Origin: Deltaproteobacteria bacterium
GTDB taxonomy: Bacteria; JAUYMQ01
DNA length: 32,166 nucleotides
Direction: 5' to 3'
Assembly: GCA_030698575.1 (NCBI GenBank)
Contig: JAUYMQ010000100.1
Location: 1-32,166, forward strand
A program made the translations under genes and the position numbers. The notes under the pieces are model-generated. The model did not search any database and was not told where the DNA came from. It was given only the letters and a program-made list of their open reading frames with translations. Numbering within the stretch: the first letter of the stretch is position 1; each line of letters starts with the position of its first letter. Shown here piece by piece: positions 9,141 through 28,497 of the stretch.

Positions 9141-11968
<2,828 letters not shown>

Positions 11969-11997
11969 GGGGGCCGCGCGAGGCCCCGGCCCTATCC

Positions 11998-12783
11998 GTG
12001 GATACGAGGCGAAGCTTGAAGCGCATCCTGCTTGCAGCCCTGCTTGCTCAAACGCTTCTTTTTGCGCCCCCGGGGTTTTCTGCGCCGGGGAAGGAAGACC
12101 CCGGCGCTTCGCCACCGGCGGATCCCCATCCTTCACCACGGCTCGAATCCTTCTACGACATCGCCTCGTCGACGCCCTGGGAGCTCAGGCGCATCGATGC
12201 CGACAACGCTTCCATCCTCGGCATTCGCATAGGCGACGCCCTGGGGCATATGAAGCGGACGCTGGGCAAGCCGCAAGCCAAACGAGTCGAGAAAATAGGC
12301 GGCGTGGTTGACCATACGGTATACCGTTTCGAGAACCTCGAGGTCCGCGTCGACGCCGACGGCCGCATCTCGCGCATAAGGTTGATGGCGAGTGGCGCAC
12401 GGGTCATGAAGAACGGCATCGAGACGCTCATGAGCGATTTCAGCGAGACCCGCATGCGCAAGGTTCTGGGCTGGAACTACCATCGCAAGCTCAAGCGGGT
12501 GTATGTCTGGCCGATCAGCCGCTCGAAGTTCAGGCAGGACAAGGACCGGGAACGGCTGCTGAACAGCGTTCAGCAGTACTACAAGCTCGATTCCGTCGAG
12601 GAGGCCGAAAAGCGCATCATCCGCGCCTGGGATACCGTATACCTTTACCCGGAACGCGGCATCCGGATGCGGGTGTACAGCAACATTCCGGTGTCGGGGC
12701 GATTCAAGGCCGATTTCGTGCTCATCAAGCCTCCGCCGCCACCCGCCCCCGAAGCGAAGGCCCCAGATTCCTCTGCGGGCTGA
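11998..12783 (+). CDS. Hypothetical exported protein
   Basis: Signal peptide (KRILLAALLAQTLLFAPPGFS-A), Pro-rich ends, ILGIRIGD...LGKP motif reminiscent of BLIP/BamE-like folds. Start is GTG 11998 or TTG 12016. Confidence 0.7.
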   Translation: MDTRRSLKRILLAALLAQTLLFAPPGFSAPGKEDPGASPPADPHPSPRLESFYDIASSTPWELRRIDADNASILGIRIGDALGHMKRTLGKPQAKRVEKIGGVVDHTVYRFENLEVRVDADGRISRIRLMASGARVMKNGIETLMSDFSETRMRKVLGWNYHRKLKRVYVWPISRSKFRQDKDRERLLNSVQQYYKLDSVEEAEKRIIRAWDTVYLYPERGIRMRVYSNIPVSGRFKADFVLIKPPPPPAPEAKAPDSSAG

Positions 12784-12788
12784 AAAGC

Positions 12789-12818
12789 TTGACGGAAGCC
12801 GGGGGCTTCGCCTAGCCT
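12789..12818 (+). promoter_or_regulatory. Putative sigma70 promoter of the barrel-FecR unit with a palindrome in the spacer
   Basis: TTGACG(12789-12794)-N18-TAGCCT(12813-12818); spacer contains GAAGCC-GGG-GGCTTC. Confidence 0.45.
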
Positions 12819-12920
12819 ACCGTCGGGCCAAGCCAGAGCTCCCGGAGTGCCGGATCATTCAGAGTCTGGGCGGAGCCTGGCCGCAGGCTGGCCGGCATCC
12901 GGCGCCGAGAGGAGGGTGCT

Positions 12921-14360
12921 ATGAAGGGAATAGCTTCCATCTGCCTGCCCCGCTGCGAGCGTTCGACTCTCCTGCAGGGCGTGATGTTCCTCGGGCTCGC
13001 CTTCACCTGGCTCTTCCTTGCGGGCTCGGCCCGCGCGGACGAGCTGGCCGAGATCGCCTTCACCGAGGGACTTGTCGCCGTCAAGACCGGAGCGCCGGAA
13101 GAGGCGGTCGAACGGCTCGGCGAGGCGACGCAGCGGAACCCTGAGGACGCCGTCGCCTGGTACTGGCTGGGGGTGGCGCACGCCCGGCTGGATGAGAAGG
13201 AGGCGGCGCTCGAAGCCTTCGATCGTGCCCTCGCGCTCGACCCGCGGTTCGCCGAAGCCTCCTATGCCCGGGGAAACGTCCTCAACAGCCAGGGAGACGA
13301 GCGGGAGGCCAAGCTCGCGTGGGATCAGGCTGCAGCCCTGGCTCCCGGTTCGGACCTGGCCCGAAGGGCGCGTGAAATGGGCGACGTGCCGCGCCCCCCC
13401 GATGCGTCCGGACGAGACTGGTATGCCGACGCCGGGATGGGGGTCGAGTACGATACGAACGTCTTCCTTTATCCCAACCAGGGCGATGCCCCTGTGGTCG
13501 GGGGGATCGGCGGGAAGCGCTACCGCCCGAGTGATCCGATCCAGGACACCCGCTTCGTCTTCTACGTCGACGGCGGCTACCGGCTCTTCGGTGGCGACAA
13601 CTGGTCGATCAATACCCATCAGTCGTTTCAGGCTGGCGTCCAGGCGCGAAGCGAGGATGTGAATTATGTCGAGTACAGGCCGTCTCTTTCGCTGCTCTAT
13701 GACGCCGACCCGCTGACCTTCGGCCTGAGCTACACCTTCACGCTCTTCGGGCTGGGCGGCGAGGTCCTCAGTGTCAGCCATGAGGTGGAGCCGAGCGTGA
13801 CGCTCAGGGAGGGCAACCGGAGCTACACGCGCCTGTTCTACCGTTACACGCGCAATGACTTCGTGGATGACGTCGCGTCGAATTTTGATCTTTCCGGGAA
13901 TGATCACCGCGTGGGAATAGACCAGTATCTTCTGCTCTTCGACCGGAGAGGCTATGCGCGCCTGGGGGTGGAGTTTCGACGGGATCTCACCGACGGATCG
14001 GAGTATTCGGGAAGCTACACGACCCTTGGCGGCGAGATCCTGGCCCCGATCCCCGGCGACGCCACTCTGCGGCTGGAGGCCGCGCAGCGCTGGGCGGACT
14101 TCGACAATGACAGCGCCTTCAGCATTCCCAACACAGTGTTCTTCGTAATGGGCCCGACCTTCAACCGCACCATCGTGCCGGTGCGCACGGGTGATCCGAA
14201 GAACGAAATTCTCACCACCGTAAGCGCGACCGTATCGCGCGAGTTCGGGGATCACTGGAGCGCCTCAGCGCGCTACATCTATTCTGTGAATCAATCGACC
14301 ATCCAGACGTACGATTACAACCGGAGCATCTTCTCTGTTTTCGCGAACTACCGTTTCTGA
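12921..14360 (+). CDS. TPR-containing outer-membrane beta-barrel protein (Slam/DUF560-like architecture)
   Basis: SD GGAGG; signal peptide ending SARA; TPRs (AWYWLGVAHARL...ALALDP); barrel begins WYADAGMGVEYDTNV; amphipathic aromatic strands; C-terminal beta-signal VFANYRF. Confidence 0.85.
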   Translation: MKGIASICLPRCERSTLLQGVMFLGLAFTWLFLAGSARADELAEIAFTEGLVAVKTGAPEEAVERLGEATQRNPEDAVAWYWLGVAHARLDEKEAALEAFDRALALDPRFAEASYARGNVLNSQGDEREAKLAWDQAAALAPGSDLARRAREMGDVPRPPDASGRDWYADAGMGVEYDTNVFLYPNQGDAPVVGGIGGKRYRPSDPIQDTRFVFYVDGGYRLFGGDNWSINTHQSFQAGVQARSEDVNYVEYRPSLSLLYDADPLTFGLSYTFTLFGLGGEVLSVSHEVEPSVTLREGNRSYTRLFYRYTRNDFVDDVASNFDLSGNDHRVGIDQYLLLFDRRGYARLGVEFRRDLTDGSEYSGSYTTLGGEILAPIPGDATLRLEAAQRWADFDNDSAFSIPNTVFFVMGPTFNRTIVPVRTGDPKNEILTTVSATVSREFGDHWSASARYIYSVNQSTIQTYDYNRSIFSVFANYRF

Positions 14361-14405
14361 TCGCCACGAATGGGCGACATCACCGCCGATGCAAGGAGAA
14401 TCTTC

Positions 14406-15251
14406 ATGAGTCATTCACGACTTGGCGCCCTCGCCGCCGGGCTTGCGGTCCTGAGCATGCTCTCGGCTCCCCCCGCCCTCGCCCAGGCGGTGGGCAAAAG
14501 CGTTGCGACAGTGGCGGAGAGGGCCCTCCCGGCGGAGGTGAAGCGGTCGGGGCAGACCGACTGGGCGGAGATCGAGGACGGGGGTGAAGTCCTTCTCGGT
14601 GACACGCTCCGCACCGGCGAGGGCGGCAGGCTCAAGATCGTGTTCAACGACAAGAGCATCATGATCCTGGCCGAGAACACCCTGCTCGAGATTACCCAGC
14701 ACGTCTATGATCCGGCCGCCAAGGAGCGCACGTCGCTCTTCAAGCTCTATGAGGGAAAGGTGCGAGCGATTGTGGGTGAGCTGTTCGGGGCCCAGTCGAG
14801 GTTTGAGATCGAGACGCCCGTGGCAGTGGCGGGCGTGAAGGGCACCGACTTCGAGACTCATCACCCGAAACCCTGCAGCACGGTTTACACACAGCTCGGC
14901 GACTCGTATGCCAGGAACGTCAATCCGGCCGTCAGTGGTGACGTGGTCGTACCGGGCGGATTCATGACGACCATCTGCGAGGGCGCGAAGCCCACGGACC
15001 CGGTGGAGGCTTCGGAGGAGTTCCTCGAGGGGACGATCCCGCTGCGGGGGCTCGACACGACGCGGCCTGGAACGCCGCCCATGGACGGCTTTCCGCCGCT
15101 TGGGCCGGACAACCAATTGCCTGGAAAGCCCAACATCCCTCCGGGTCCGCAGCCGAACATTCCACCCACGAGCACGGGCGGGCTGCCGCCAGGTGGCGCG
15201 CCGGTCACGCCGCCGCCGCCCAGGCCCATCGTGAACAACACGATGCAGTAA
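14406..15251 (+). CDS. Exported FecR-domain protein with Pro-rich C-terminal tail
   Basis: SD AAGGAG before ATG 14406; signal peptide ending ALA-Q; FecR motifs GDTLRTG, FNDKS..LAENT, LYEGKV, FEIETPVAVAGVKGTDF. Confidence 0.88.
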   Translation: MSHSRLGALAAGLAVLSMLSAPPALAQAVGKSVATVAERALPAEVKRSGQTDWAEIEDGGEVLLGDTLRTGEGGRLKIVFNDKSIMILAENTLLEITQHVYDPAAKERTSLFKLYEGKVRAIVGELFGAQSRFEIETPVAVAGVKGTDFETHHPKPCSTVYTQLGDSYARNVNPAVSGDVVVPGGFMTTICEGAKPTDPVEASEEFLEGTIPLRGLDTTRPGTPPMDGFPPLGPDNQLPGKPNIPPGPQPNIPPTSTGGLPPGGAPVTPPPPRPIVNNTMQ

Positions 15252-15295
15252 TCCCTCATCGCCGCGTGCCGCGCGCGCGGCGCGTCCCGGAATGG

Positions 15296-15330
15296 ACAGA
15301 AGCCCGAGGGCGCCCCCCTCGGGCTTCTGT
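15296..15330. terminator. Perfect 15-bp hairpin between the FecR and cyclase genes
   Basis: ACAGAAGCCCGAGGG-CGCCC-CCCTCGGGCTTCTGT; only a weak U tail follows. Confidence 0.6.
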
Positions 15331-15413
15331 TATGCCGGGCTGCCTCAAGTTCTCGGGAACGTGTTAAGGTTGGCTTGCTGGAGCGTTACACCCCGCCTCT
15401 GGGAGAGGAATAG

Positions 15414-17582
15414 ATGCGTGGCTGGCTGAGCCCGAGCGGCTGGAAGATCGGCCTTGCTTGCGCCGTCATATCGCTGGCTCTCTGGTACGCGGGCATTGCC
15501 TTCCTGCAGGACATCGAACTCAAGACCGTCGATGCGCGTTTCCGTCTCCGCGGCGTTCGGGATGTCAGCGATCGGGTGGTGATAGCCGCCATTGACGAAC
15601 GGAGCATCGACGCGCTCGGGCGATGGCCCTGGCCCCGGTCGGACATCGCCGCGCTGGTCGACAGCCTGAAAGACCTCGGCGCGCGCGTCATCGCCTTCGA
15701 CATCGTTTTCGCCGAACCTGAGCGAAACCACCCCGAAAACGATCAAATGCTGGCCGAATCGATCGAGCGGGCCGGCAACGTCGTGCTCGGTTACTACTTC
15801 CGCACGGCGCAGAAACGGCGGTATGCGGGCCCGACGAAGGGTCCTCCGGACGACCTCGCCAAGGAAATAGCCGTGGAGGAGGCGAAGCGCTTCAACCAGG
15901 CCCTCGCGGCGGTGTCAACCTCGCAGGTCTCGATCCTGCGGATGACCGAGGCGCCGCGAACGCCCGGGCAGTGCTCGGGCGTGGAGCCCAACATCCCCAT
16001 CATTGGCGGCGCATCCAAGGCCATGGGTTACTTCAGTATTCAGCCCGACATAGACGGCGTGGTGCGCCGCATCCCGCTTGTGCTCTCCTGTCGTGACGAC
16101 TACTACACCTCGCTCTCTCTCCGAGCCACGTCGGCTTATCTCGGCAACGCCCCGATCGCAATCGATCTCCGGAGAGACGGCATCCGATCCCTCACCGTCG
16201 GCCCGGGGCGCGTGAAAGTGGACGAGGCGGGCTTTCTGCGCGTCAACTTCCCGGGCCCTGCGCAGTCCTTCGCGTATTACTCCGCGGTGGATCTCATCCG
16301 CAAACGCGTCAACCCCGACGCGGTGCGCGACCGGCTGGTTATCGTCGGCTCCACAGAACTCGGCATCGAGGATATCCGTCCGACCCCCTTCGGCCCGGTC
16401 GTTCCGGGGCCGGAGGTCCAGGCGGCGGCCATCGAGACCATTCTCCGTGGATCTTTCATCCAGCGGGACAACGCCATCATTCTTGCCGACGTGCTCATGG
16501 TGTTCATCCTCGGCGTGGGGCTTGGCGGACTGTTCGGCCGCCTGCCCAGCGCCGTGCACCGTGCCGAGGCTTTTCTTCTTGCATCCATCCTGTTCATCGC
16601 CTGGCAGGGGTTCTCCTTCGGAAAGCTCGGGCTGCAGTTCAACACCCTTTACCCGGGCATCTCCCTCGGCCTCACCTACCTCGGCGTCAGTCTTTATGAG
16701 GCCTTCGGCATCGAGGCAAGCAGCCGCCGGACGCGCGCGGCCTTCGAGGCCTACGCGCCCCCGGAAGTCGTAGAAATGATCGTCAAGGATCCGGCGCGGC
16801 TGGTGCTCGGGGGAGAGCGGCGTGACATCTCGGTCCTGTTTTCGGACATCGAGGGCTTCACGACGCTCTCCGAGGCCCTCGCGCCGGAAGAGGTCGTGCG
16901 GCTGCTCAACACCTATCTCACACCCATGACCGAACTGGTGTTCGAGCACGGCGGCACGCTCGACAAGTACATCGGCGACGCCATCATGGCCATCTTCGGA
17001 GCGCCGATCGACGCGGCTGACCATTCCGAACGCGCATGCCGGACCGCGCTCCAGATGATGAAAGCGCTCGACGCGTTGAAGGATCAGTCCTGGTTCGATC
17101 GTGGCTGGCCCGACATACAGATCAGGATCGGCGTCAGCTCGGGTCCCATGGCGGTCGGGAACATGGGTACCGACATGCGGTTCGCCTATACCGCCATCGG
17201 CGACGGCGTGAATCTGGCGTCGCGGCTGGAGGGACTCAACAAGGATTACGGCAGCCGCATTCTTATCAGTGAGTTCACGCGCGATCAGTTGAAGACGGTG
17301 TTTTCCGTGCGAGAGATTGATGTGGTGCGCGTGCGTGGAAAGCGGGTGCCTGTGCGCGTGTACGAACTGCGCGGTGAAGGAGTCCCATCGATGGAGGAGG
17401 CGCGCTTCATCAGCGACTTCGAAGAGGGGCTGAAGGCCTTCCGATCCCAGCGTTACGATCTTGCCCGCGAGCGCTTCCGCTCCTGCCGGGAGCAGCAGCC
17501 CGAGGATGGCCCCGCGCGAGTGATGCTGGCGCGGTGCGACGCGGCCGAGAGGAAGCAGGATCTCGAAAAGGCGGCGCTCTGA
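15414..17582 (+). CDS. CHASE2-domain class III adenylate cyclase
   Basis: N-terminal TM; CHASE2 motifs (IDERSI..LGRWPWPR, FDIVFAEP, DIDGVVRR, PGPEVQA); three TMs; catalytic FSDIEGFT, DKYIGDAIMA, YTAIGDGVNLASRLEG (Lys/Thr indicate ATP specificity); TPR-like tail. Confidence 0.95.
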   Translation: MRGWLSPSGWKIGLACAVISLALWYAGIAFLQDIELKTVDARFRLRGVRDVSDRVVIAAIDERSIDALGRWPWPRSDIAALVDSLKDLGARVIAFDIVFAEPERNHPENDQMLAESIERAGNVVLGYYFRTAQKRRYAGPTKGPPDDLAKEIAVEEAKRFNQALAAVSTSQVSILRMTEAPRTPGQCSGVEPNIPIIGGASKAMGYFSIQPDIDGVVRRIPLVLSCRDDYYTSLSLRATSAYLGNAPIAIDLRRDGIRSLTVGPGRVKVDEAGFLRVNFPGPAQSFAYYSAVDLIRKRVNPDAVRDRLVIVGSTELGIEDIRPTPFGPVVPGPEVQAAAIETILRGSFIQRDNAIILADVLMVFILGVGLGGLFGRLPSAVHRAEAFLLASILFIAWQGFSFGKLGLQFNTLYPGISLGLTYLGVSLYEAFGIEASSRRTRAAFEAYAPPEVVEMIVKDPARLVLGGERRDISVLFSDIEGFTTLSEALAPEEVVRLLNTYLTPMTELVFEHGGTLDKYIGDAIMAIFGAPIDAADHSERACRTALQMMKALDALKDQSWFDRGWPDIQIRIGVSSGPMAVGNMGTDMRFAYTAIGDGVNLASRLEGLNKDYGSRILISEFTRDQLKTVFSVREIDVVRVRGKRVPVRVYELRGEGVPSMEEARFISDFEEGLKAFRSQRYDLARERFRSCREQQPEDGPARVMLARCDAAERKQDLEKAAL

Positions 17583-17597
17583 AGCGTGAGGTGCGGG

Positions 17598-18221
17598 TCA
17601 GCTTTCGTAGACGACCAGATCTATCTCGTAGCCGCAGGCCTCGATGTTCTCGAGAATCCGATCGAAAGCAGGCGCCGCGATGGTGAGCACCACGTCCAGT
17701 CCGGAATCGTGCAACCGGAGATGGCGTTCGGCCCTCAACAGGCGGCCGCCGCGGTCGAGGACGATCTGGCAGATCCGATGGAACAGCTCGGGCTTCCGGG
17801 GAATGGTCAGTTCAATCCGCGCGCGCCGGTCGTGCTGGCTGGCGACCTCGATGAGCGCCTCGATGACGTCGCTCTCAGTGATAATTCCCACAAGCCTTTT
17901 CCCGCGCAGCACGGGTAGCCCGGCAATGTGATGCTTGCGGAACAGCCGTGCGGCTTTCTCGACGTAAGTTTCAGGCGAGACGGTGATGACCGAGGCAGTC
18001 ATGTAGTCCGCGACCGGGCGCTCGAGCGATGAGAGCGTGCCACCGGCTCGCGCGGTGGCCGAAAGAATGTCCCGCTCGGTGATGATGCCGACCAGCTCGC
18101 GCGCCTTCACGACGGGAAGGTGGCGCACGTCATTCTTCGCCATCAGATTGCAGGCGTAACGCAAGCTGGATTCGGGAGTCACGGTGATAGGTCGGCGGCT
18201 CATGCGGGACGAAACCTGCAT
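17598..18221 (-). CDS. AcuB-like CBS-pair plus ACT domain protein
   Basis: SD GAGGA before ATG 18221; two CBS domains (VRHLPVV..LVGIITERDI; IAGLPVL..LVGIITESDV) followed by an ACT-like domain (ARIELTIPRKPE). Confidence 0.85.
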   Translation of the reverse strand: MQVSSRMSRRPITVTPESSLRYACNLMAKNDVRHLPVVKARELVGIITERDILSATARAGGTLSSLERPVADYMTASVITVSPETYVEKAARLFRKHHIAGLPVLRGKRLVGIITESDVIEALIEVASQHDRRARIELTIPRKPELFHRICQIVLDRGGRLLRAERHLRLHDSGLDVVLTIAAPAFDRILENIEACGYEIDLVVYES

Positions 18222-18411
18222 GTCGGTCCTCAATCGCGTGGTGTGGTCGCATCCTACGCGCGCGTTCGAGACGGGTGCAAGAGCAAAGGGCCTGAAGTGC
18301 GTCGATTTCAAGTTCGTTCCTGCATGCGTTCCGATTCCGGTATATGCGCGCCCGCTTGACGCCCCCCTGCTAGACCGCGCCTAGGAAGTCCTCGCAAGTT
18401 GCTTCACGGAT

Positions 18412-18444
18412 AAAGAAAATCCCCCTTCGAAATCGAAGGGGGAT
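18412..18444 (-). terminator. Intrinsic terminator of the enoyl-CoA hydratase gene
   Basis: ATCCCCCTTCGA-AA-TCGAAGGGGGAT inverted repeat followed on the minus strand by TTTCTTT. Confidence 0.8.
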
Positions 18445-18474
18445 CAAAAGCCGGCTGTTTCTCCGCTGTCCGCC

Positions 18475-19269
18475 TCAGCGGCCCTGAAACTTCGGATCGC
18501 GGCGTTCCATCAACGCGGTCGCGCCCTCCCGGAAATCTTCGGTCGTCAGGAGCGTGCTCTGGGCGAGCGCTTCCAGTTCCATGCCGCTCTTCTTGTCGAG
18601 CCCCTGGGCGCGATCGATGAGGCGCTTGGCCAAACCCACGGCCAGCGGCGCGTTCCGGGCGATCTCCGAGAGCAACCTGCGCGAACGGGGAAGGAGGTCG
18701 GCCGCGTCGACAACGTGGTTGACAAGACCGATCGTGTGCGACTCCCCGGCGGTCAATAGCCGGCCAGTCAGAATGATCTCCTTGGCCCAGGCCGGGCCGA
18801 CGGTCCGGAGCAGGCGTGTGGTTCCCCCTACGTCCGGAATCAAGCCCACGCGCACTTCGGGCAGACCGACGAGCGCCTCGCGTTCGGCAATCCGGAAGTC
18901 GCAGGCCAGGGCCAGTTCCAGTCCGAGGCCGACGCAGTGGCCTTGAATCGCCGCGACGATGGGCTTCTCCAGATCCTCCATTTCGTTGAAGCGCCCCTGG
19001 AGCCCATTCAACTTGGTCCGGAAGTCCGCCATGGTCGCGTTCACGGCGACCGATGAGCCCAGCCAGGCCGCGTCGATGCCGGCTGAGAAGGCCTTTCCCT
19101 CGCCACGCAGCAGGATGCCTCGCACATCCCGGTCGTCCCGCGCTTTCTCGAAGGCCTTGCTCAGGGCATCGAGCACGTCTCCGTTCAGCGCGTTGCGCTT
19201 CTCCGGGCGGTTCAGCGTGATGGTCAGAATCTGCGAATCGAGTTCGGTGAGAACGAGCGGTTCGGCCAT
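18475..19269 (-). CDS. Enoyl-CoA hydratase/isomerase (crotonase family)
   Basis: SD AAGGAG; ITLNRPEKRNAL, FSAGID, GLGLELALACDFR, GLPEVRVGLIP (both catalytic Glu present), DFREG...RDPKFQGR. Confidence 0.95.
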   Translation of the reverse strand: MAEPLVLTELDSQILTITLNRPEKRNALNGDVLDALSKAFEKARDDRDVRGILLRGEGKAFSAGIDAAWLGSSVAVNATMADFRTKLNGLQGRFNEMEDLEKPIVAAIQGHCVGLGLELALACDFRIAEREALVGLPEVRVGLIPDVGGTTRLLRTVGPAWAKEIILTGRLLTAGESHTIGLVNHVVDAADLLPRSRRLLSEIARNAPLAVGLAKRLIDRAQGLDKKSGMELEALAQSTLLTTEDFREGATALMERRDPKFQGR

Positions 19270-19281
19270 GGGACACTCCTT

Positions 19282-19329
19282 CCTTCGTGCTGGCCTTCGT
19301 GCTGGCTTTCGTGCTGCCGTTCGTGCGGG
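19282..19329. repeat. Four tandem 12-bp repeats (core TTCGTGC)
   Basis: CCTTCGTGCTGG CCTTCGTGCTGG CTTTCGTGCTGC CGTTCGTGCGGG, adjoining the SD of the hydratase gene. Confidence 0.9.
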
Positions 19330-19399
19330 CATCTTGCGGATACGGGCTTTCCGAGCCGGCCCCGACCCGGGGATGCGCGCAGCGCTCCGCAAGATGCCC
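19327..19399. repeat. Perfect 14-bp inverted repeat with 45-bp spacer
   Basis: GGGCATCTTGCGGA (19327-19340) and TCCGCAAGATGCCC (19386-19399). Confidence 0.9.
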
Positions 19400-19502
19400 C
19401 GGGCCGGATGTGGCATGTTGGCACGGGGGTGAAAAACCGGCAACCTGTCGGCCGGTAGGACGCGGACGCGCTGGAACGCGCGCCCGCGAAAGGGAGGAAC
19501 GC

Positions 19503-20441
19503 ATGCCGCGGTTCGGCGCGCACATGTCCGTGGCGGGCGGCGTGGAACTCGCCTTCGAGCGAGGAAAGCGCGTCGGCTGCGAGGCGATGCAGATATTCAC
19601 GAAGAACGCGAACCAGTGGAACGCGCGTCCGCTGGATGCCGGTGTGGCGGAGCGGTTCCGGAAGGCTGCGCGCGACAGCGGCATCCGGCCGCTTCTTGCG
19701 CACGACTCCTACCTGATCAATCTGGGGTCACCCCGGTCGCCGTTGTTGCGAAGGTCGCGCGCGGCTCTGGAGGACGAGCTGCAGCGGGCGGAGGCCCTCG
19801 GCCTCGACTATCTCGTGATTCATCCGGGAGCCGCTGTGGGAGGGTCGAAAGACGATTGTCTGCGGCGGATCGCCGAGTGCATCGACGATGTGCACGGCCG
19901 CACCTCCGGCTTCCGCGTGAGGATCCTCCTCGAGAACACGGCCGGGCAGGGAACCGTGGTTGGCCACCGGCTGGAGCATCTCGCGCGGATCATCGATGCG
20001 GTGGATGAGCCCGGGCGGCTTGGCGTCTGCATCGACACCTGCCATCTCTTTGCGGCGGGCTATGATTTTCGTGATGCGAAAGGCTACGCCGCAACCATGA
20101 AGGAGATCGGGCGAGTTCTTGGATTTCGCCGCGTGAAGGCCTTCCACCTGAACGACTGCAAGAAGGATCTGGGCTGTCGCGTGGACCGGCACGAGCATAT
20201 CGGCCGGGGCTTCATTGGACAGGAAGCCTTTCGCCTGATCGTTTCCGACAGCCGGTTCCGGGCGACGCCGATGATCCTCGAAACGCCGAAAGGAGACGAC
20301 GGATTCGGCATGGACATCGAAAACCTGACGCTGCTCAGGCGGCTGGCCGGGCGGACGAGCGGTGGGGGTGGGGCCGGGGGATTGCTTCAGCGCCCCTCAG
20401 CTGCGCGTCGCGATGACCCGCGCGGAGGCGGTGGAACGTGA
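19503..20441 (+). CDS. nfo: Endonuclease IV (AP endonuclease)
   Basis: SD GGAGGA; FGAHMS, QIFTKN, HDSYLINL, HPG, ENTAG, DTCH, HLND, DRHEHIG, LETP; Gly/Arg-rich C-terminal extension. Confidence 0.96.
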   Translation: MPRFGAHMSVAGGVELAFERGKRVGCEAMQIFTKNANQWNARPLDAGVAERFRKAARDSGIRPLLAHDSYLINLGSPRSPLLRRSRAALEDELQRAEALGLDYLVIHPGAAVGGSKDDCLRRIAECIDDVHGRTSGFRVRILLENTAGQGTVVGHRLEHLARIIDAVDEPGRLGVCIDTCHLFAAGYDFRDAKGYAATMKEIGRVLGFRRVKAFHLNDCKKDLGCRVDRHEHIGRGFIGQEAFRLIVSDSRFRATPMILETPKGDDGFGMDIENLTLLRRLAGRTSGGGGAGGLLQRPSAARRDDPRGGGGT

Positions 20442-20698: not shown

Positions 20699-22681
20699 CT
20701 AGTCCGACGATTGGACCAGCGCTGTTCGAGCCGGAGACGCATCTGGGAGCGAGAGGCTGACTTCCTCGATCAGCGCGCGAATGTAGCGCGAGGGGACAGC
20801 GAAGTTGAGCCCGGTCAATGCGACCTCTTCCGATTCACGAACGATGAAGGTGTTGATGCCGACGACCTCTCCCTGGAGGTTGAGCAGCGGGCCACCGGAA
20901 TTGCCGGGATTGATGGAAACGTCGGTCTGAAGGAAGTCCACGCCGTTGCGCATACGGCGGGTGGAGCTGATGATCCCCTTTGTGACCGTGTGCATGAGCC
21001 CCATGGGCGCGCCGATGGCGATCACGTCGTCCCCGGCGCGCAGCGGCGCCGCCGCGACGTAAAGGAAGGGGAGATCGCGCCCGCCCGTCCGCAGGATCGC
21101 CAGATCGCTCAGACGATCTTGCGACAGGATCCGCGCGCGCCGGCTCCCGTGCTCGGGAACACTCACCATGATCTTGTGGGCCCCCTCGATGACGTGAAGA
21201 TTGGTGACGACGATGCCGTCGGGACGGATGAGGGCGCCCGATCCGTAGGCCCGCTTTCCATCGCCGAGCTGAGCGGTGATCATGACGACGGCGCGCTCGC
21301 TGCGCGAAACGACCGCAGGCAACGAGCCGGGTTCGGTCGCTTCGGGGACGTACACCGAAGCCGGCCGTGTCTGGATGTCGAGCTGCAGCGGATCGTCGTC
21401 GTCCTCGAGGCGAAAACTGGTTGCCAGGCGGGTCAGCTCCGAACGCACCTCATCGAAGACGCCGTCGCCTGCGATGCCGAGCAGGAGATAGCGCTGTCCG
21501 CCCGCCACGTAGCAGGTGATGAGGAAGCTTTTCCGGCCATCCTCAAGCGAAACGGAGACAACCTCCTGGGCGCCGATCAGCCCGCCCGCCGACACGCTCT
21601 GCTCCTGGTAAACGGTCGGTTCGCGGCCGAGGGCCTTCAAGCGGCTCGCGCTTTCCGAAAGACACGCCTCCGCACTCCCCGTGTTTTCCTCAACAAGCAC
21701 GATCATCCGCGCAAACCCGTCCGCGCGCACGAGTTCGAGATCGGCTTCCGGCTGACCCGCGATCGGGCGGGGCGCTCCGAGCCCGTGCCAGTCGTCGTTC
21801 GGCCGGCGAAGCGTGTAGCCGTAGGCTGCTCCCTGAAGCAGCCGCTCTTCCTCCCAGCGGCTGATCCCTCGCCATGCGCCGATGATAAGGGAAGTGGAGA
21901 GGATCGCCGCAAGCGAGAGGCCGACCGCCGCGTGCAGGCCGCCCCCGGGACGGAAGGAAGCACGGACCGGGCGGCTCATGAGAACGGTCGCGGCCAGCGC
22001 GGACAGTCCGATGGCCGCCATGCCGCCGGCCAGCGGCGCCCAGGCTGCCTCGAGCGCGGCCCAGGTCATGCCGGCCAGCGCTGAAAGCGAAAGAAGAGCG
22101 AGAAGCACGAGTGCGGCCCGCCTCGCCCAGGACCGCATGGCAAGGAGCCCGGCGCCGATGACCACCCCCGGAGCGTTCAGCGACAGGAGGCTTGTGGCCA
22201 TAATCCCGGCGGCCACGGCGCGCACACGGCGCTGGACGTCGCGGGGCGTGACATCCTGGAGGCGTATCTTGACCGGGGGAGCGTCGGCGGTGGCGGTCGC
22301 GGCTGCTACCGTCGTCGCCCTGCCCTCCCGCGTCGCGGCTGCCGCCTGCACGTGCTCGATGAGCAGGCGCTGCTCGAGGGCCGGGAGCCAGACCCCGCCG
22401 TCCTGAGAGACGAGATCTTCCCAATCTACCCGTTCCTCGCCCATCCACTTCATGAGGCCGGCGAGCGGGACGGGCCCGAAAACGCCGGTGGTCACCTCGA
22501 CGAACCAGCGATCGCGGGCGGGCTCGTCATCGGGAGGGATCTCACCCGCGCCGCCGAAGCGCTCGGGCGCCCGCGGATCGAAGATCGTCCGGCAAAAGGG
22601 GCAGCGAGCCAGGGCGTCGGGCGCGAGCGACTCGTCGGCCGTCTCCCAGCTGGCGTCACAGGCTGGACAGTGAGGTGTCAT
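20699..22681 (-). CDS. Membrane-anchored trypsin-like (S1C/HtrA-type, PDZ-less) serine protease with N-terminal zinc ribbon and GYF_2 domain
   Basis: CPAC...CPFC; WFVE..GVFGPV...DLVSQDG..WLP (GYF_2); about 4-5 TM segments; PsbP-like beta-sheet region; catalytic triad VTNLHV / DLAIL / QTDVSINPGNSGGPL. Confidence 0.88.
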   Translation of the reverse strand: MTPHCPACDASWETADESLAPDALARCPFCRTIFDPRAPERFGGAGEIPPDDEPARDRWFVEVTTGVFGPVPLAGLMKWMGEERVDWEDLVSQDGGVWLPALEQRLLIEHVQAAAATREGRATTVAAATATADAPPVKIRLQDVTPRDVQRRVRAVAAGIMATSLLSLNAPGVVIGAGLLAMRSWARRAALVLLALLSLSALAGMTWAALEAAWAPLAGGMAAIGLSALAATVLMSRPVRASFRPGGGLHAAVGLSLAAILSTSLIIGAWRGISRWEEERLLQGAAYGYTLRRPNDDWHGLGAPRPIAGQPEADLELVRADGFARMIVLVEENTGSAEACLSESASRLKALGREPTVYQEQSVSAGGLIGAQEVVSVSLEDGRKSFLITCYVAGGQRYLLLGIAGDGVFDEVRSELTRLATSFRLEDDDDPLQLDIQTRPASVYVPEATEPGSLPAVVSRSERAVVMITAQLGDGKRAYGSGALIRPDGIVVTNLHVIEGAHKIMVSVPEHGSRRARILSQDRLSDLAILRTGGRDLPFLYVAAAPLRAGDDVIAIGAPMGLMHTVTKGIISSTRRMRNGVDFLQTDVSINPGNSGGPLLNLQGEVVGINTFIVRESEEVALTGLNFAVPSRYIRALIEEVSLSLPDASPARTALVQSSD

Positions 22682-25038: not shown

Positions 25039-26712
25039 ATGAAGCGCGCATTGCTATTCTCCGCCCTCCTCCTGCTGGCCGACGCCTTTTCGCTGCCCGT
25101 GCCCGCGCTCGTTTTCGCTGCCACCGATGACGTGCCTGAATCGCTTCGTGAGGCAGGCGAAGCGCTGGGCCGGGAGGTTCCGGAGTCGCCGAAGGAGGGC
25201 GAAGATGAAGCGGCGCCCGCCCGGGCAGTTCCGCCCGAGGTGCAGGCGATTCTCTCCAAGGGGAACCGCTTCTATGCTCTGGGAGATTACGACGCCGCCC
25301 GGGTGCAGTATCTCGAGGCAATCAGAAAGGATCCGGGATCTCCCGAGGGCCACTACGGGCTCGGGATGACCTACCTCGCGCTGGGCGATGTGAACGCGGC
25401 GATCATCGCCTGGCGACGAGCCGGCGGGGTCGATTCGGTGACTGCGGGGCTGTTCGACGAGTTCCGGAGTTTCCGCTCCGCGCGCGACGCGGTGCAATCG
25501 CAGCTCATGGCCACCCGCCGAAGCCAGGCTGAGGCGGTGGCGCGCGAGGAGCAGCCGGTGAGCGAGCGCTACGTGGGGCGCGGCGCGAGCGGGCTCTTCG
25601 ATTCATCCAACCGGGCCATGCTTGGGCGCCTCGACATTCCGCCGGAAGAGGAGACGGATACCCGGGCGCAGGATGGCGAGCTTCCTCCGCTGGGCAACAC
25701 CGCCTTTCCCCCGCCCCCGGATGCCGTCGCCGGGGAAGATCTTGCTCAGGAGCAGCTCCCGAGAGCCGCCACGGAAATGCCGCTCTCGGTTCAGAACGTG
25801 CCCGACACGCCGCGACCCGGGGGGCCGGCGCCTCCGGCCGTCGCCGCTCTCAGCCCCGAGCAGGCCGCCGACCCGAAGGCGCGGGGCATCTACTATGTCC
25901 AGACCGGAAACGATCAGGGCGCGGTGACCGCCTTCGAGGAGGTCCTGGCCACGGACCCGCGCGACAGCGATGCACTGAGCTACCTGGCCGGGCTCTATCT
26001 GGCGGGCGGGCGCGCCGACGATGCGGAAGGGGCCTACAAGCGCCTCGCCCGGCTCGAGCCGGCCTCGAGCGTGCCTCTCACCAACCTGGGAGGTCTGTAC
26101 TTGAATCTCGGCCGATTCGATGAGGCATCGACGACGCTCCAGGAGGCGCTGCGGCTCGACCCGTCGGATTCGCTGGCCATCAACAACCTGGCGGGCGTCT
26201 ACTACAAGACGGGCCGTGTCGATGACGCCGTCCGCGAGCTTAATCGGGCCATCGAGATCAATCCGGAGGATCTGAACTCACATAACAACCTGGCGGGCAT
26301 CTACTACCGCCAGGAAAGATTCGAGAAGGCCATCGAGGAGCTGCAGAGAATCCTGTCTCTCGATCCCTCGCACGCTGTTGCTGCCGCGAACCTCGAGGAA
26401 GCCTACAAGCGCAAGCGTGAGTTCGAGTCCGCCCGCAGTGAGCGGAAAATGCGGGCGCGCCAGATCGTGCTCCCTTCCGAGGAGGAAGCGAAGGCCGTTC
26501 GCGCGGAGATTCAGGACGGAAATGACTTCGTGCGGCTCGCCCGCGAGCGGAGTATCGATCAGACGGCGGCGAAAGGCGGCGATCTCGGTTTCTTCGACAA
26601 GGGCGATCTGGACAGCGAGGCGGAGGAAGCCATCCGCAAGCTCGCCCCCGGCGAGATCTCCGGTGTGGTGAAAACCCCCGGCGGCTACAGCATTTTTCAG
26701 CGGCTCGACTGA
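25039..26712 (+). CDS. Exported TPR-repeat protein with C-terminal parvulin-like domain
   Basis: Signal peptide MKRALLFSALLLLA; two TPR clusters (GHYGLGMTY; NNLAGVYY, NNLAGIYY) separated by a Pro/acidic linker; ARQIV...GGDLGFF...KTPGGYSIF. Confidence 0.88.
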   Translation: MKRALLFSALLLLADAFSLPVPALVFAATDDVPESLREAGEALGREVPESPKEGEDEAAPARAVPPEVQAILSKGNRFYALGDYDAARVQYLEAIRKDPGSPEGHYGLGMTYLALGDVNAAIIAWRRAGGVDSVTAGLFDEFRSFRSARDAVQSQLMATRRSQAEAVAREEQPVSERYVGRGASGLFDSSNRAMLGRLDIPPEEETDTRAQDGELPPLGNTAFPPPPDAVAGEDLAQEQLPRAATEMPLSVQNVPDTPRPGGPAPPAVAALSPEQAADPKARGIYYVQTGNDQGAVTAFEEVLATDPRDSDALSYLAGLYLAGGRADDAEGAYKRLARLEPASSVPLTNLGGLYLNLGRFDEASTTLQEALRLDPSDSLAINNLAGVYYKTGRVDDAVRELNRAIEINPEDLNSHNNLAGIYYRQERFEKAIEELQRILSLDPSHAVAAANLEEAYKRKREFESARSERKMRARQIVLPSEEEAKAVRAEIQDGNDFVRLARERSIDQTAAKGGDLGFFDKGDLDSEAEEAIRKLAPGEISGVVKTPGGYSIFQRLD

Positions 26713-26856
26713 GATCCGGCGCTCACCCCTCCGCCACGCCGGGCTTGCCCCCAAACTGTATTGATCCAGAACCACTGCGGGTGTATAAAATCCGCCATAC
26801 CACGCGCCCCCTCCCGGGAGCGCTGTTTTTTCCTGCCCGAATCCCCCCCCCCGCTC

Positions 26857-26891
26857 TGCCCAAATATTGGGCGGTGACTCAAATTTCATCA
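26857..26891. promoter_or_regulatory. Putative NtrC-type enhancer sites
   Basis: TGCCCAAATATTGGGCG (26857-26873) resembles TGCAC-N7-GTGCA; a weaker dyad TGACTCAAATTTCATCA lies at 26875-26891; about 100 bp upstream of the -24 box. Confidence 0.55.
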
Positions 26892-26968
26892 CGGTACCCG
26901 GTGGTGCGCGGCGGTCGTGCGGTACACGAAACCGCGGCCAAGCCGGAAGAATCGACAAGCGGCAGACA

Positions 26969-26985
26969 TCGGCACGCTTCTTGCT
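26969..26985 (+). promoter_or_regulatory. sigma54 -24/-12 promoter of porin-PII
   Basis: TCGGCACGCTTCTTGCT (GG-N10-GC). Confidence 0.8.
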
Positions 26986-27078
26986 GAACAGACCGTGTTT
27001 TGCACCGGGAGCCGCCGGGGAGCGCGTGACGAGTGTGTCGACGCCTGAATCCACGGGAAGCCAAGGGGAGGAGATTCA

Positions 27079-28497
27079 ATGGAGACGCTCGGAAAGGCAA
27101 CGATCGGAAGCGCAATGAAGGCGTTTCGCCGGGGGGTCGTCGTTGCAACCAGCTTGGCGACGACCGCCGTTCTTGTTCCAGCCGCGTGGGCCGGTGATCC
27201 GTCGAACACCGAGATGGTCAAAGAGTTCCAGAACATGAAGAGCGAGATCCGGGCGCTCCAGCAGAAAACCAACACCCTGGAACTGCGGAACGCGGAGAAG
27301 GACAGCCAGATCAAGTCGCTCGAGGGCCAGGTGCAGAAGACGAACGAGGATCTCACCGGCATGTCGGCCTACAACTTCGTAAAAGACGTCGAGGTTTCCG
27401 GCTACGTTTCGACCATCTTCACGGACACGCTGACAAACCCGAGCGATCAGACACGGCGGCTCGGCGTGTTCGAGACCAACTCGCACAGCTTCAACAACTC
27501 GGCCTTCAAGCTGGTGTTCGAGAAGCCGACCTCGAACGAGAGCCGGGCCGGCTTCCGCGTGGACATTCTGAGCGGCGAGACGGGACGCCTTCTCGGAAAC
27601 GCTACCTCGGACGTTCCCACTGGAAGCACGGGGCTCGACGACTTCGAACTGGAGCAGGCCTACGTGACCTACAAGGCCGACCTCGGCGACGGGCTCGACA
27701 TCTACGCCGGCAAGTTCGTGACGCTCCTCGGCGCGGAGGTCATCGAGAGCCCGCTCAACTACAACATCAGCCGATCCATTCTCTTCGGCTTCGCGATTCC
27801 CTTTACGCATACCGGCATTCGCGCGACCTATCCCCTCACCGACAAGATCAGCGTAACGGCGGGCGTGAACAACGGCTGGGACAACAACGATGACCTGAAC
27901 CACGGCTACAGCTATGAGGGCCAGGTGGCCTGGTCGCCGAACGACGACTTTTCCCTCTCGGTGAACGGTATCTGGGGACCGGAGCAGGTGGGTATCGAGC
28001 GGCGCAAGCGCGGCGTGGTGGACGTCGTGGCGAACTGGACCCCGACGGACAAGCTGACCTTGATCGGCAACTTCGACTGGGGCCACGAGTCGGGCGTCAC
28101 CGTTACCCACGAGAACATCATCTACGTGACGGAGCCCGACCCCAACGCGGTTCCACCATTCTCCTCCAATATGATCACCGCCGTAGATCAGTCCTATAAC
28201 AGCAAGACGGTGGCCGACTGGTACGGCGGCGCGCTGGTGGCGAACTACCAGTTCACCGACCGGTTCGGGCTTGCAGGCCGCGCCGAGTACTTCGTGGACG
28301 CCGACGGATCGCGCACGGGCTTGTCTCAGGACCTGTGGGAGTTCTCGGTCACTCCCGCCTTCTGGGTGACGCCGAAGCTCCTCGCGCGCCTCGAGTTCCG
28401 CACCGATCATTCGAGCGATAAGTATTTTCTGCAGGGATCCCAGCCGGCCAATCACCAGGAGACGGTGTTCGGCGAAGTTGCATACCTCTTCCCTTGA
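27079..28497 (+). CDS. Outer-membrane beta-barrel porin (BBP2/OmpL-like) with N-terminal coiled coil
   Basis: SD GGAGGAG; signal peptide ending AWA; heptad segment; VSGYV, EQAYVTY, GKFVTLLGAEVIES..NYNISRS.LF..IPFTHTG, GVNNGWD, RLEFRTD; ends YLFP. Alternative start at 27115. Confidence 0.88.
   Translation: METLGKATIGSAMKAFRRGVVVATSLATTAVLVPAAWAGDPSNTEMVKEFQNMKSEIRALQQKTNTLELRNAEKDSQIKSLEGQVQKTNEDLTGMSAYNFVKDVEVSGYVSTIFTDTLTNPSDQTRRLGVFETNSHSFNNSAFKLVFEKPTSNESRAGFRVDILSGETGRLLGNATSDVPTGSTGLDDFELEQAYVTYKADLGDGLDIYAGKFVTLLGAEVIESPLNYNISRSILFGFAIPFTHTGIRATYPLTDKISVTAGVNNGWDNNDDLNHGYSYEGQVAWSPNDDFSLSVNGIWGPEQVGIERRKRGVVDVVANWTPTDKLTLIGNFDWGHESGVTVTHENIIYVTEPDPNAVPPFSSNMITAVDQSYNSKTVADWYGGALVANYQFTDRFGLAGRAEYFVDADGSRTGLSQDLWEFSVTPAFWVTPKLLARLEFRTDHSSDKYFLQGSQPANHQETVFGEVAYLFP

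Follow-up and report, generated by a model that had tools for sequence, protein, structure and literature searches.

The window examined here is a contig of 32,166 nucleotides (JAUYMQ010000100.1) from a Deltaproteobacteria bacterium, whose source assembly (GCA_030698575.1; 4.13 Mb in 653 contigs) belongs to a phylum represented by three species genomes in our collection. It carries three open reading frames (ORFs) in a row, predicted to encode an outer-membrane protein with tetratricopeptide repeats (TPR) and a beta-barrel (P0001), an exported FecR-fold protein (P0002) and a CHASE2 adenylate cyclase (P0003), as listed in Table 1. P0001 and P0002 are separated by 9 nt, and P0002 and P0003 by 162 nt. 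A first-pass annotation of the sequence had named the same three co-oriented genes, and their positions and strand were confirmed. It had also proposed that they form a split version of the NsrA-CyaK system of Sinorhizobium meliloti, in which the FecR protein would be the CHASE2 ligand and a surface cue would be turned into cyclic AMP (cAMP).

Table 1. Features of the TPR-barrel, FecR and CHASE2 cyclase locus
Feature	Position in window	Strand	Basis or remark
P0005, secreted protein, no assigned family	11998..12783	+	Between uvrA and the barrel gene
P0001, signal peptide, periplasmic TPR and predicted 14-strand outer-membrane barrel, 479 aa	12921..14360	+	Pfam, AlphaFold2, Foldseek
TPR region of P0001 (aa 41-155)	13041..13385	+	Helix pairs in the model; Pfam TPR_2, TPR_11, TPR_16
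Barrel of P0001 (aa 167-479)	13419..14357	+	EYDTNV motif in first strand; C-terminal YRF
P0002, exported FecR-fold protein, 293 aa	14370..15251	+	Pfam FecR, model, Foldseek
Proline-rich, low-confidence C-terminal tail of P0002 (aa 230-293)	15057..15248	+	pLDDT 51-79; 32 homologue tails compared
P0003, CHASE2 receptor with class III (K/T type) adenylate cyclase and short helical C-terminal tail, 722 aa	15414..17582	+	

P0001 begins with a sequence that resembles a signal peptide and ends in NYRF. Pfam places TPR motifs at residues ~48-153, and the AlphaFold2 model, with a mean predicted local distance difference test score (pLDDT) of 75.1, shows helix pairs at residues 41-155 and, C-terminal to them, 14 long beta strands (167-478). 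The top Foldseek matches were all outer-membrane barrels, namely BcsC (9b8a, E 2.7e-12), CymA, OmpG, PelBC and PgaA, with low template-modeling scores (TM-scores) of 0.35-0.46. A barrel profile from the close family gave no meaningful match in the PDB. The repeats, the modeled strands and the barrel matches together support the annotation of P0001 as an outer-membrane TPR/beta-barrel protein. Among 1.84 billion proteins, a barrel-only profile found 803 representatives at E<=1e-3 and 203 at E<=1e-10. The 150 representatives listed are mostly proteins of ~430-550 aa with the barrel match in the C-terminal half. All 10 representatives sampled have an N-terminal TPR region, and 3 of the 10 show a weak match to SlipAM.

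The FecR domain of P0002 (PF04773) was found at residues 78-164 with an E-value of 2.7e-14. The protein has a single hydrophobic segment, which is N-terminal and signal-peptide-like, and its model contains a beta-rich fold at residues 44-205 with a pLDDT above 90. An alternative start at 14406 (M13) would give a 281-aa form, as in the database record P0069. Beyond the fold, the proline-rich tail keeps short motifs among homologues (PTDTGGLP-like and P-I-x-N-N-T). P0002 is the single strong FecR protein of the window's genome, and its gene adjoins that of the sole CHASE2 protein. The nearest named relatives in NCBIfam were Leptospira Lsa33 ("surface adhesin") and LipL45, with scores well short of the family cut-offs.

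The nearest folds to P0002 in Foldseek were the periplasmic domains of anti-sigma factors (4m0n, E 4.4e-7; PupR 6ovk_R, E 1e-5). Together with the Pfam domain, this could mean that P0002 is a classical FecR anti-sigma regulator of a distant extracytoplasmic function (ECF) sigma factor with a TonB-dependent receptor. We find this explanation hardly credible. Pfam, hydrophobicity and the model revealed neither an anti-sigma N-domain nor a second membrane segment in P0002, so that the earlier description of an exported FecR protein lacking the anti-sigma N-terminus holds, and no membrane span is left besides the signal peptide. As also noted before, there is no ECF sigma factor or TonB-dependent receptor among the window ORFs scanned with Pfam, a scan that covered small ORFs only in part, and neither recurs beside the pair elsewhere. 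The locus does share with the FecA-FecR-FecI system an outer-membrane barrel partnered by a periplasmic FecR fold, and in both information would travel across the envelope. It differs in having no TonB-dependent receptor, anti-sigma N-domain or ECF sigma factor, and its output is a cyclase.

P0003 contains a CHASE2 domain (PF05226; residues 20-369, E 6.5e-61) and a Guanylate_cyc domain (PF00211; residues 470-650, E 5.3e-29), with hydrophobic segments at residues 12-30 and about 348-402. Across 25 aligned cyclases, D478, D522, N600 and R604 (P0003 numbering) are invariant, and K518 and T593 are nearly so. We take these positions to be the two metal-binding aspartates, the lysine and threonine that specify adenine, and the asparagine and arginine that act in the transition state, which would make P0003 a class III adenylate cyclase of the K/T type. 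The catalytic motifs are therefore intact, as the annotation had stated, and P0003 is predicted from its sequence to produce cAMP. No other CHASE2 protein was found in the window's genome, which also encodes two proteins with cyclic-nucleotide-binding domains as possible cAMP readers. No phosphodiesterase was present among the window ORFs scanned.

Conservation of the linkage was examined from the side of the barrel and from the side of the cyclase. Neighbors were counted with purpose-built hidden Markov models; the FecR model recognizes both S. meliloti FecR proteins, and weaker relatives of FecR or of the barrel may escape these models. Sample A comprised 301 genomes from the phylum of genome G004, and the barrel was present in 59 of them at E<=1e-5. 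At the 40 best-scoring places outside G004 (35 weaker matches of 77 were left aside), a FecR gene adjoins the barrel gene at 32, nearly always directly downstream and on the same strand. A CHASE2 protein is encoded at 9 of these 40 loci, counted inside the fetched regions, and at one further locus at least (L130) it lies just beyond the edge; of 348 CHASE2 matches in the sample, 150 were listed. Sample B covered 251 genomes from the phylum of G003, a Sulfurimonas metagenome-assembled genome. It gave a barrel match in 11 genomes, and among the 12 places fetched FecR is adjacent at 10 and a CHASE2 cyclase is present at 4. When the neighbors were clustered, the only recurrent families were the barrel (50 loci), FecR (39 loci) and the CHASE2 cyclase (15 loci), with the next family at 7 loci.

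These counts also bear on what the barrel is. The Foldseek matches to BcsC, CymA, OmpG, PelBC and PgaA, and the TPR-plus-barrel architecture shared by polysaccharide exporters, could be explained if P0001 were a channel for exopolysaccharide or solutes, akin to BcsC/PgaA/PelB or CymA/OmpG, with no functional meaning in its placement by FecR and the cyclase. This is very improbable in our view. No polysaccharide synthase or other family recurs beside the barrel, and FecR follows it at the large majority of places in both samples. In addition, the barrels of BcsC and PgaA have 16 strands, not the 14 of the P0001 model, and the TM-scores of the matches are low.

The co-occurrence was also seen at the level of whole genomes. 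CHASE2 proteins were found in 56 of the 59 barrel-bearing genomes of sample A but in only 121 of the 242 barrel-less ones (odds ratio 18.7, Fisher p 1e-11, uncorrected for relatedness or genome size). Several gene orders were observed, including barrel-FecR-cyclase, cyclase-barrel-FecR (L079) and FecR-barrel-cyclase (L105), and the linkage persists in several distant lineages and phyla despite this variation. Within the window's own phylum, uvrA, P0005, the barrel and FecR are kept in all three genomes, and the cyclase too where the contig continues; one of the three genomes has two barrel-FecR pairs. A metagenome scan with the close-family barrel alignment retrieved 9 near relatives. FecR adjoins the barrel in 7 of them, and the cyclase is present in 3 where the contig continues, while L092 and L099 are too short to judge. 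The phylogenetic profiling suggested by the annotation thus bears out a conserved linkage of the triad.

The cyclase-based sample consisted of 80 loci from many phyla, chosen as the best matches to the 25-sequence CHASE2 cyclase alignment. A FecR gene was found in 28 of these loci and lay within 400 nt of the cyclase in 19. Restricting the count to the 49 loci with at least 3 kb on each side gave 20 and 12, respectively. The barrel was found in 4 of the 80 (L016, L017, L060 and L079). Because the linkage is tight when starting from the barrel, and CHASE2 proteins accompany nearly every barrel-bearing genome, the core unit is the barrel-FecR pair. It often stands beside a CHASE2 gene, and CHASE2 receptors also occur without it.

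Some loci depart from the simple three-gene row. Several close relatives have the tandem order barrel-FecR-barrel-FecR-cyclase (the end of L007 with L008; G002:C107/C109). Tandem pairs were also seen on one metagenome contig (L093, L098), and P0014/P0019 lie with P0081/P0088 on one 9784-nt contig. With tandem copies of barrel and FecR next to a single cyclase, it is the pair that duplicates together, leaving out the cyclase. A database protein of 193 aa, P0095, joins an N-terminal FecR part to the final barrel strands (...YNRSIYSLFASYRF) and is likely an assembly chimera across such a tandem repeat. In one genome, the CHASE2 cyclase next to a barrel-FecR pair is spread across several overlapping frames (L116:3954-6140), possibly as a frameshifted or decaying copy.

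Next, the locus was compared with the NsrA-CyaK system. On S. meliloti pSymB (L089), the gene overlapping the start of cyaK encodes a 1190-aa "FecR domain-containing protein" which, from its length and position, we infer to be NsrA. Pfam assigns residues 66-160 of this protein to FecR and about 420-590 to TPR, and a barrel is faintly matched at the C-terminus. According to the accessible part of PMC7529298, NsrA is an outer-membrane receptor, NsrA and CyaK are both required for the response to signal 1, and the NsrA barrel spans residues 600-1200, its loops being the only surface-exposed part. This agrees with the annotation's statement that NsrA acts upstream of the CHASE2 cyclase CyaK, and the requirement of an outer-membrane protein for the CHASE2 cyclase response is likewise reported in what could be consulted of PMC7529298 and PMC13001267.

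In both systems, FecR, TPR and an outer-membrane barrel are encoded directly beside a CHASE2 class III cyclase, and the two cyclases share about 32% identity in an alignment that covers 85% of their length. The difference is that S. meliloti has one chain in the order FecR-TPR-barrel, while the window has two genes, TPR-barrel followed by FecR. The barrel of NsrA, at about 600 aa, is also twice as long as that of P0001. Since S. meliloti carries FecR, TPR and barrel in one chain beside cyaK, the window looks like a split-component system of the NsrA-CyaK type, a fit at the level of domains. Fusion of parts which the window divides over two genes is a classical argument for joint function. BLASTP of P0001 against the 1190-aa protein aligned the TPR parts only, and the profile found no P0001-type barrel in two S. 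meliloti replicons. SMb20495 had been considered as such a barrel and was rejected, since nothing on pSymB matched (best E 0.13). A second CHASE2 cyclase locus of S. meliloti has a convergent gene for a 295-aa FecR protein.

The barrel of P0001 is, by profile comparison, a distant relative of the Slam or type 11 secretion system (T11SS) barrels (DUF560). The barrel profile led to L101:7329-8879, which is a full-length member of SlipAM (PF04575) with an E-value of 9.5e-25. The gene 3' of it encodes a 1168-aa protein ending in TbpB_B_D, the usual Slam cargo domain. A profile made from the window's close family alone scored the L101 protein at E 6.3e-10 with both barrel ends matched, and wider barrel profiles gave 6.4e-17 and 5.6e-26. 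Alignment of the barrel family to the same protein with hhalign had a probability of 92.7% and placed the EYDTNV motif over YDTNA. These profiles were specific, with 8 matches in 6646 ORFs (82 loci plus the window), every one of them a TPR-barrel. Among 98 distant relatives scanned, PF04575 was found in 26 and TPR_Slam in 42 (E<=0.01). P0001 itself had no match to PF04575 at E<=0.01, and since it falls below the model, we regard it as a distant Slam/T11SS relative and not a member. Across the window's genome, PF04575 had no match at E<=10, but the control matched no genome either. A sequence search for a solved Slam structure found none.

The likeness to Slam extends to the layout. Slam barrels have 14 strands, and both kinds of protein would combine a periplasmic TPR region with a 14-strand barrel C-terminal to it; in both, the next gene downstream encodes the partner, and there is homology at profile level. 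The differences are that the partner of P0001 is a FecR-fold protein without the eight-strand cargo barrel at its C-terminus, and that P0001 is linked to a CHASE2 cyclase while Slam is linked to TonB-dependent uptake. FecR proteins encoded directly after related barrels do end in TbpB_B_D in L100 (E 3.4e-11) and L108 (1.5e-4) and weakly in L109 (0.013). The FecR protein of L060 gave an E-value of 0.63, which is insignificant alone; in all four proteins the match reaches within 10 residues of the C-terminus. No TbpB_B_D-like domain was found in P0002 or its close relatives, in which the proline-rich tail beyond the FecR fold leaves no room for one.

A Slam-like barrel whose FecR partners can carry a cargo domain raises the possibility that the FecR protein is exported instead of acting as a soluble periplasmic adaptor, and the sequence evidence makes this a serious alternative. 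P0001 would then be a type 11 translocon and P0002 its client, which would reach the cell surface as a binding protein or effector. The CHASE2 cyclase would belong to the same pathway without being fed by a periplasmic FecR protein; its role may be cAMP-based control of the pair or the monitoring of export. We consider this possible, at clearly less than an even chance. The profile and hhalign scores against SlipAM, the PF04575 and TPR_Slam matches among relatives, the architecture equal to that of Slam and the cargo-type ends of some FecR proteins all point toward it, as do the distant NCBIfam neighbors of P0002, Lsa33 and LipL45. A further point comes from SMc02177, a stand-alone FecR protein near cyaD1 in S. 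meliloti. The part of PMC5498481 that we could consult describes it as a cAMP/Clr target that is needed for control of secondary infection and is dispensable for signal perception ex planta. Against export stand the absence of a TbpB_B_D-like domain in P0002 and its close relatives, the absence of a PF04575 match in P0001 and the absence of a lipobox in P0002. Moreover, the FecR part of NsrA is fused N-terminal to the TPR, on a protein of which only the barrel loops are described as exposed in the available part of PMC7529298. Export alone would also leave the presence of CHASE2 in 56 of 59 barrel-bearing genomes unexplained.

We return to outside-in signaling, for which the genetics of NsrA, the fusion in S. 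meliloti and the co-occurrence across genomes argue. We give about an even chance to the three genes forming one trans-envelope signaling module of the NsrA-CyaK type, in which barrel and FecR relay an outside cue to the cyclase. Domain make-up, linkage and co-occurrence were observed here, and we infer the physical contacts, the direction of the signal and the cue. The 14 strands of P0001 would form a barrel in the outer membrane and its TPR domain would lie in the periplasm, with P0002 as its dedicated partner. Together, barrel and FecR would report a cue located at the outer membrane or outside it. The FecR protein, retained by the TPR domain, the barrel or both, would change the state of the periplasmic CHASE2 domain, and this change would shift the cAMP output of the cytoplasmic class III domain of inner-membrane P0003. 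One complex prediction, which paired residues 32-352 (the periplasmic CHASE2 domain) of P0003 with residues 39-240 (the FecR fold) of P0002, scored 0.02 against a mark of 0.32 with no control runs and weighs on neither side of the question of binding.

Several observations weigh against such a relay. In sample A, 31 of the 40 barrel places have no CHASE2 gene within about 7 kb, and the co-occurrence statistic takes no account of phylogeny and genome size. In the cyclase-based sample, 52 of 80 CHASE2 cyclases have no FecR gene nearby and 76 of 80 have no barrel; since most lack these partners, CHASE2 is in general independent of them. The gene order of the window reverses the domain order of NsrA, and homology between the barrels of NsrA and P0001 was undetected (the barrel profile scored -0.7 bits against the 1190-aa protein, E 0.039). 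The annotation's idea of a split NsrA-CyaK system thus stands for the domains, with FecR, TPR and barrel in one S. meliloti chain, and does not extend to detectable homology of the barrels. The kinship of the barrel with Slam translocons suggests export over relay. Finally, SMc02177 is itself induced by cAMP and Clr and is not needed for perception (PMC5498481, accessible part); in S. meliloti this protein acts after the cyclase or alongside it. Among published results, this one most clearly contradicts a general rule that FecR is the input.

Relay and secretion could also be combined, if what CHASE2 reads is a client that a Slam-like barrel retains or lets through. The conserved 60-residue proline-rich tail of P0002, if extended, would be long enough to bridge the periplasm. 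A more speculative reading, which we regard as rather doubtful, joins two proposals: that FecR-fold proteins are widespread and undescribed clients of Slam-like barrels beyond the classical Proteobacteria, and that the barrel-FecR pair is the long-sought input of CHASE2. Under this joint reading, FecR would be held or threaded by the barrel, its tail would span the periplasm like the spacer of TonB, and CHASE2 would read occupancy or release and convert it into cAMP.

Related arrangements have been reported in other bacteria. The available part of PMC9239204 (mBio 2022) describes a Campylobacterota cAMP cluster of a CHASE2 cyclase, a phosphodiesterase, a FecR-domain protein and a TPR protein. 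Consistent with this, our Campylobacterota loci L102, L105, L106 and L107 hold a P0001-related TPR-barrel, a FecR protein and a CHASE2 cyclase. The triad, earlier assumed to be new, is thus already described for this group. These clusters differ from the window in that L102 also has a PDEase_II-GAF-HD protein, the window ORFs scanned having no phosphodiesterase, and in that their FecR partners are longer (about 400-990 aa), some with TbpB_B_D-like ends. In the accessible text of PMC9239204, the TPR protein is neither called a barrel nor related to Slam. FecR is also found with CHASE2 histidine kinases. The Burkholderia "BiofilmReg" operon and the PA4035-type pair of Pseudomonas aeruginosa encode a LysM-FecR protein and a CHASE2 histidine kinase, according to the part of PMC5192318 consulted. 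The likeness is an exported FecR-domain protein encoded directly before a CHASE2 receptor; the differences are the histidine kinase output, the LysM domain on the FecR protein and the fact that the accessible part of that paper reports no TPR-barrel. The same source, as far as available, quotes a Pfam text in which no input of the CHASE2 domain is known, and we found no CHASE2 structure or ligand study in the searchable literature.

The cyclase-based loci showed other potential partners beside CHASE2. In beta- and other proteobacteria, the gene of a giant protein lies before the CHASE2 cyclase (L040:3844-7893) or before FecR and cyclase (L066:609-6380). Both giants contain a two-partner-secretion (TPS) domain and represent another secretion-type partner by CHASE2; a 2146-aa ORF (L065:2-6439) may be compared with them. 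In Bradyrhizobium (L046:3266-7816 and L074:1703-7780), FecR is fused to cadherin-like and Big_9 repeats, with RTX in L046, in proteins of 1500-2000 aa encoded directly before CHASE2 cyclases. Loci from Calditrichota, Ignavibacteria and Bacteroidota (L024, L053, L058, L068) share a row of a ~390-aa protein, a ~230-aa FecR protein, a ~830-aa protein and a CHASE2 cyclase. The ~390-aa and ~830-aa proteins, which have no Pfam family in L053, may be local counterparts of the barrel. A second CHASE2 protein is encoded about 3-4 kb upstream of the CHASE2 cyclase in L025, L037, L039, L043, L054 and L071. CHASE2 cyclases also appear on contigs titled Woesearchaeota archaeon (L029, and L033 with a FecR gene) and Saccharimonadales (L062). 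These archaeal and ultra-small-bacterial contigs are probably mis-binned DNA of diderm bacteria.

The surroundings of the triad in the window are of a housekeeping kind. Upstream lie mfd, two SurA-like genes, pdxA and uvrA; on the 3' side there is a convergent CBS-pair gene, with amtB and glnA at the far end of the window. P0005 matched no Pfam or NCBIfam family. It was considered as a fourth component and rejected, as it occurs only in close relatives (L006, L007, L098) and the remaining loci between L006 and L112 lack it; it is probably outside the system. A scan of 11800-18500 for promoters and terminators gave counts no higher than those of shuffled sequence. A second TPR/outer-membrane pairing lies at 25039-28497, where the gene of a TPR and peptidyl-prolyl isomerase protein (557 aa) precedes that of a BBP2 (OmpL-like) porin (472 aa); by profile this pairing is unrelated to P0001. 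On the - strand, 20699-22681 encodes a 660-aa protein with a C-terminal trypsin-like peptidase domain and a long N-terminal part without assignment, and 18404-19684 is a 426-aa ORF with no Pfam or NCBIfam family.

The Campylobacterota triad (PMC9239204), FecR beside CHASE2 kinases (PMC5192318) and the genetics of NsrA-CyaK are already published. In a literature search that left most subscription journals and supplements outside its reach, we found no published account that relates the TPR protein to Slam/T11SS barrels, shows FecR proteins ending in a Slam-cargo domain, or gives the size and distribution of the barrel-FecR family. In its main text, the T11SS cargo survey PMC12282271 uses the word "FecR" 0 times, and two other T11SS preprints mention it solely as a neighboring iron regulator. 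The earlier outline was largely right, and the window holds a real conserved system, a split variant with a relative of a secretion system.

A dedicated barrel-FecR pair that tracks CHASE2 across phyla provides concrete candidates for the missing input of CHASE2 receptors. In S. meliloti, both partners are joined in one chain, an upstream receptor established by genetics, which supports the candidacy of the pair as an input, and the three-gene set is simple to reconstitute. The link to Slam extends this barrel family past the surface lipoproteins and hemophores of host-associated Proteobacteria. It suggests either that a secretion-type barrel was recruited for signaling or that cAMP signaling is coupled to the export of surface proteins. 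If the joint reading, in which FecR proteins are both barrel clients and the CHASE2 input, were true, it would be a form of cell-surface signaling that uses a second messenger instead of a sigma factor.

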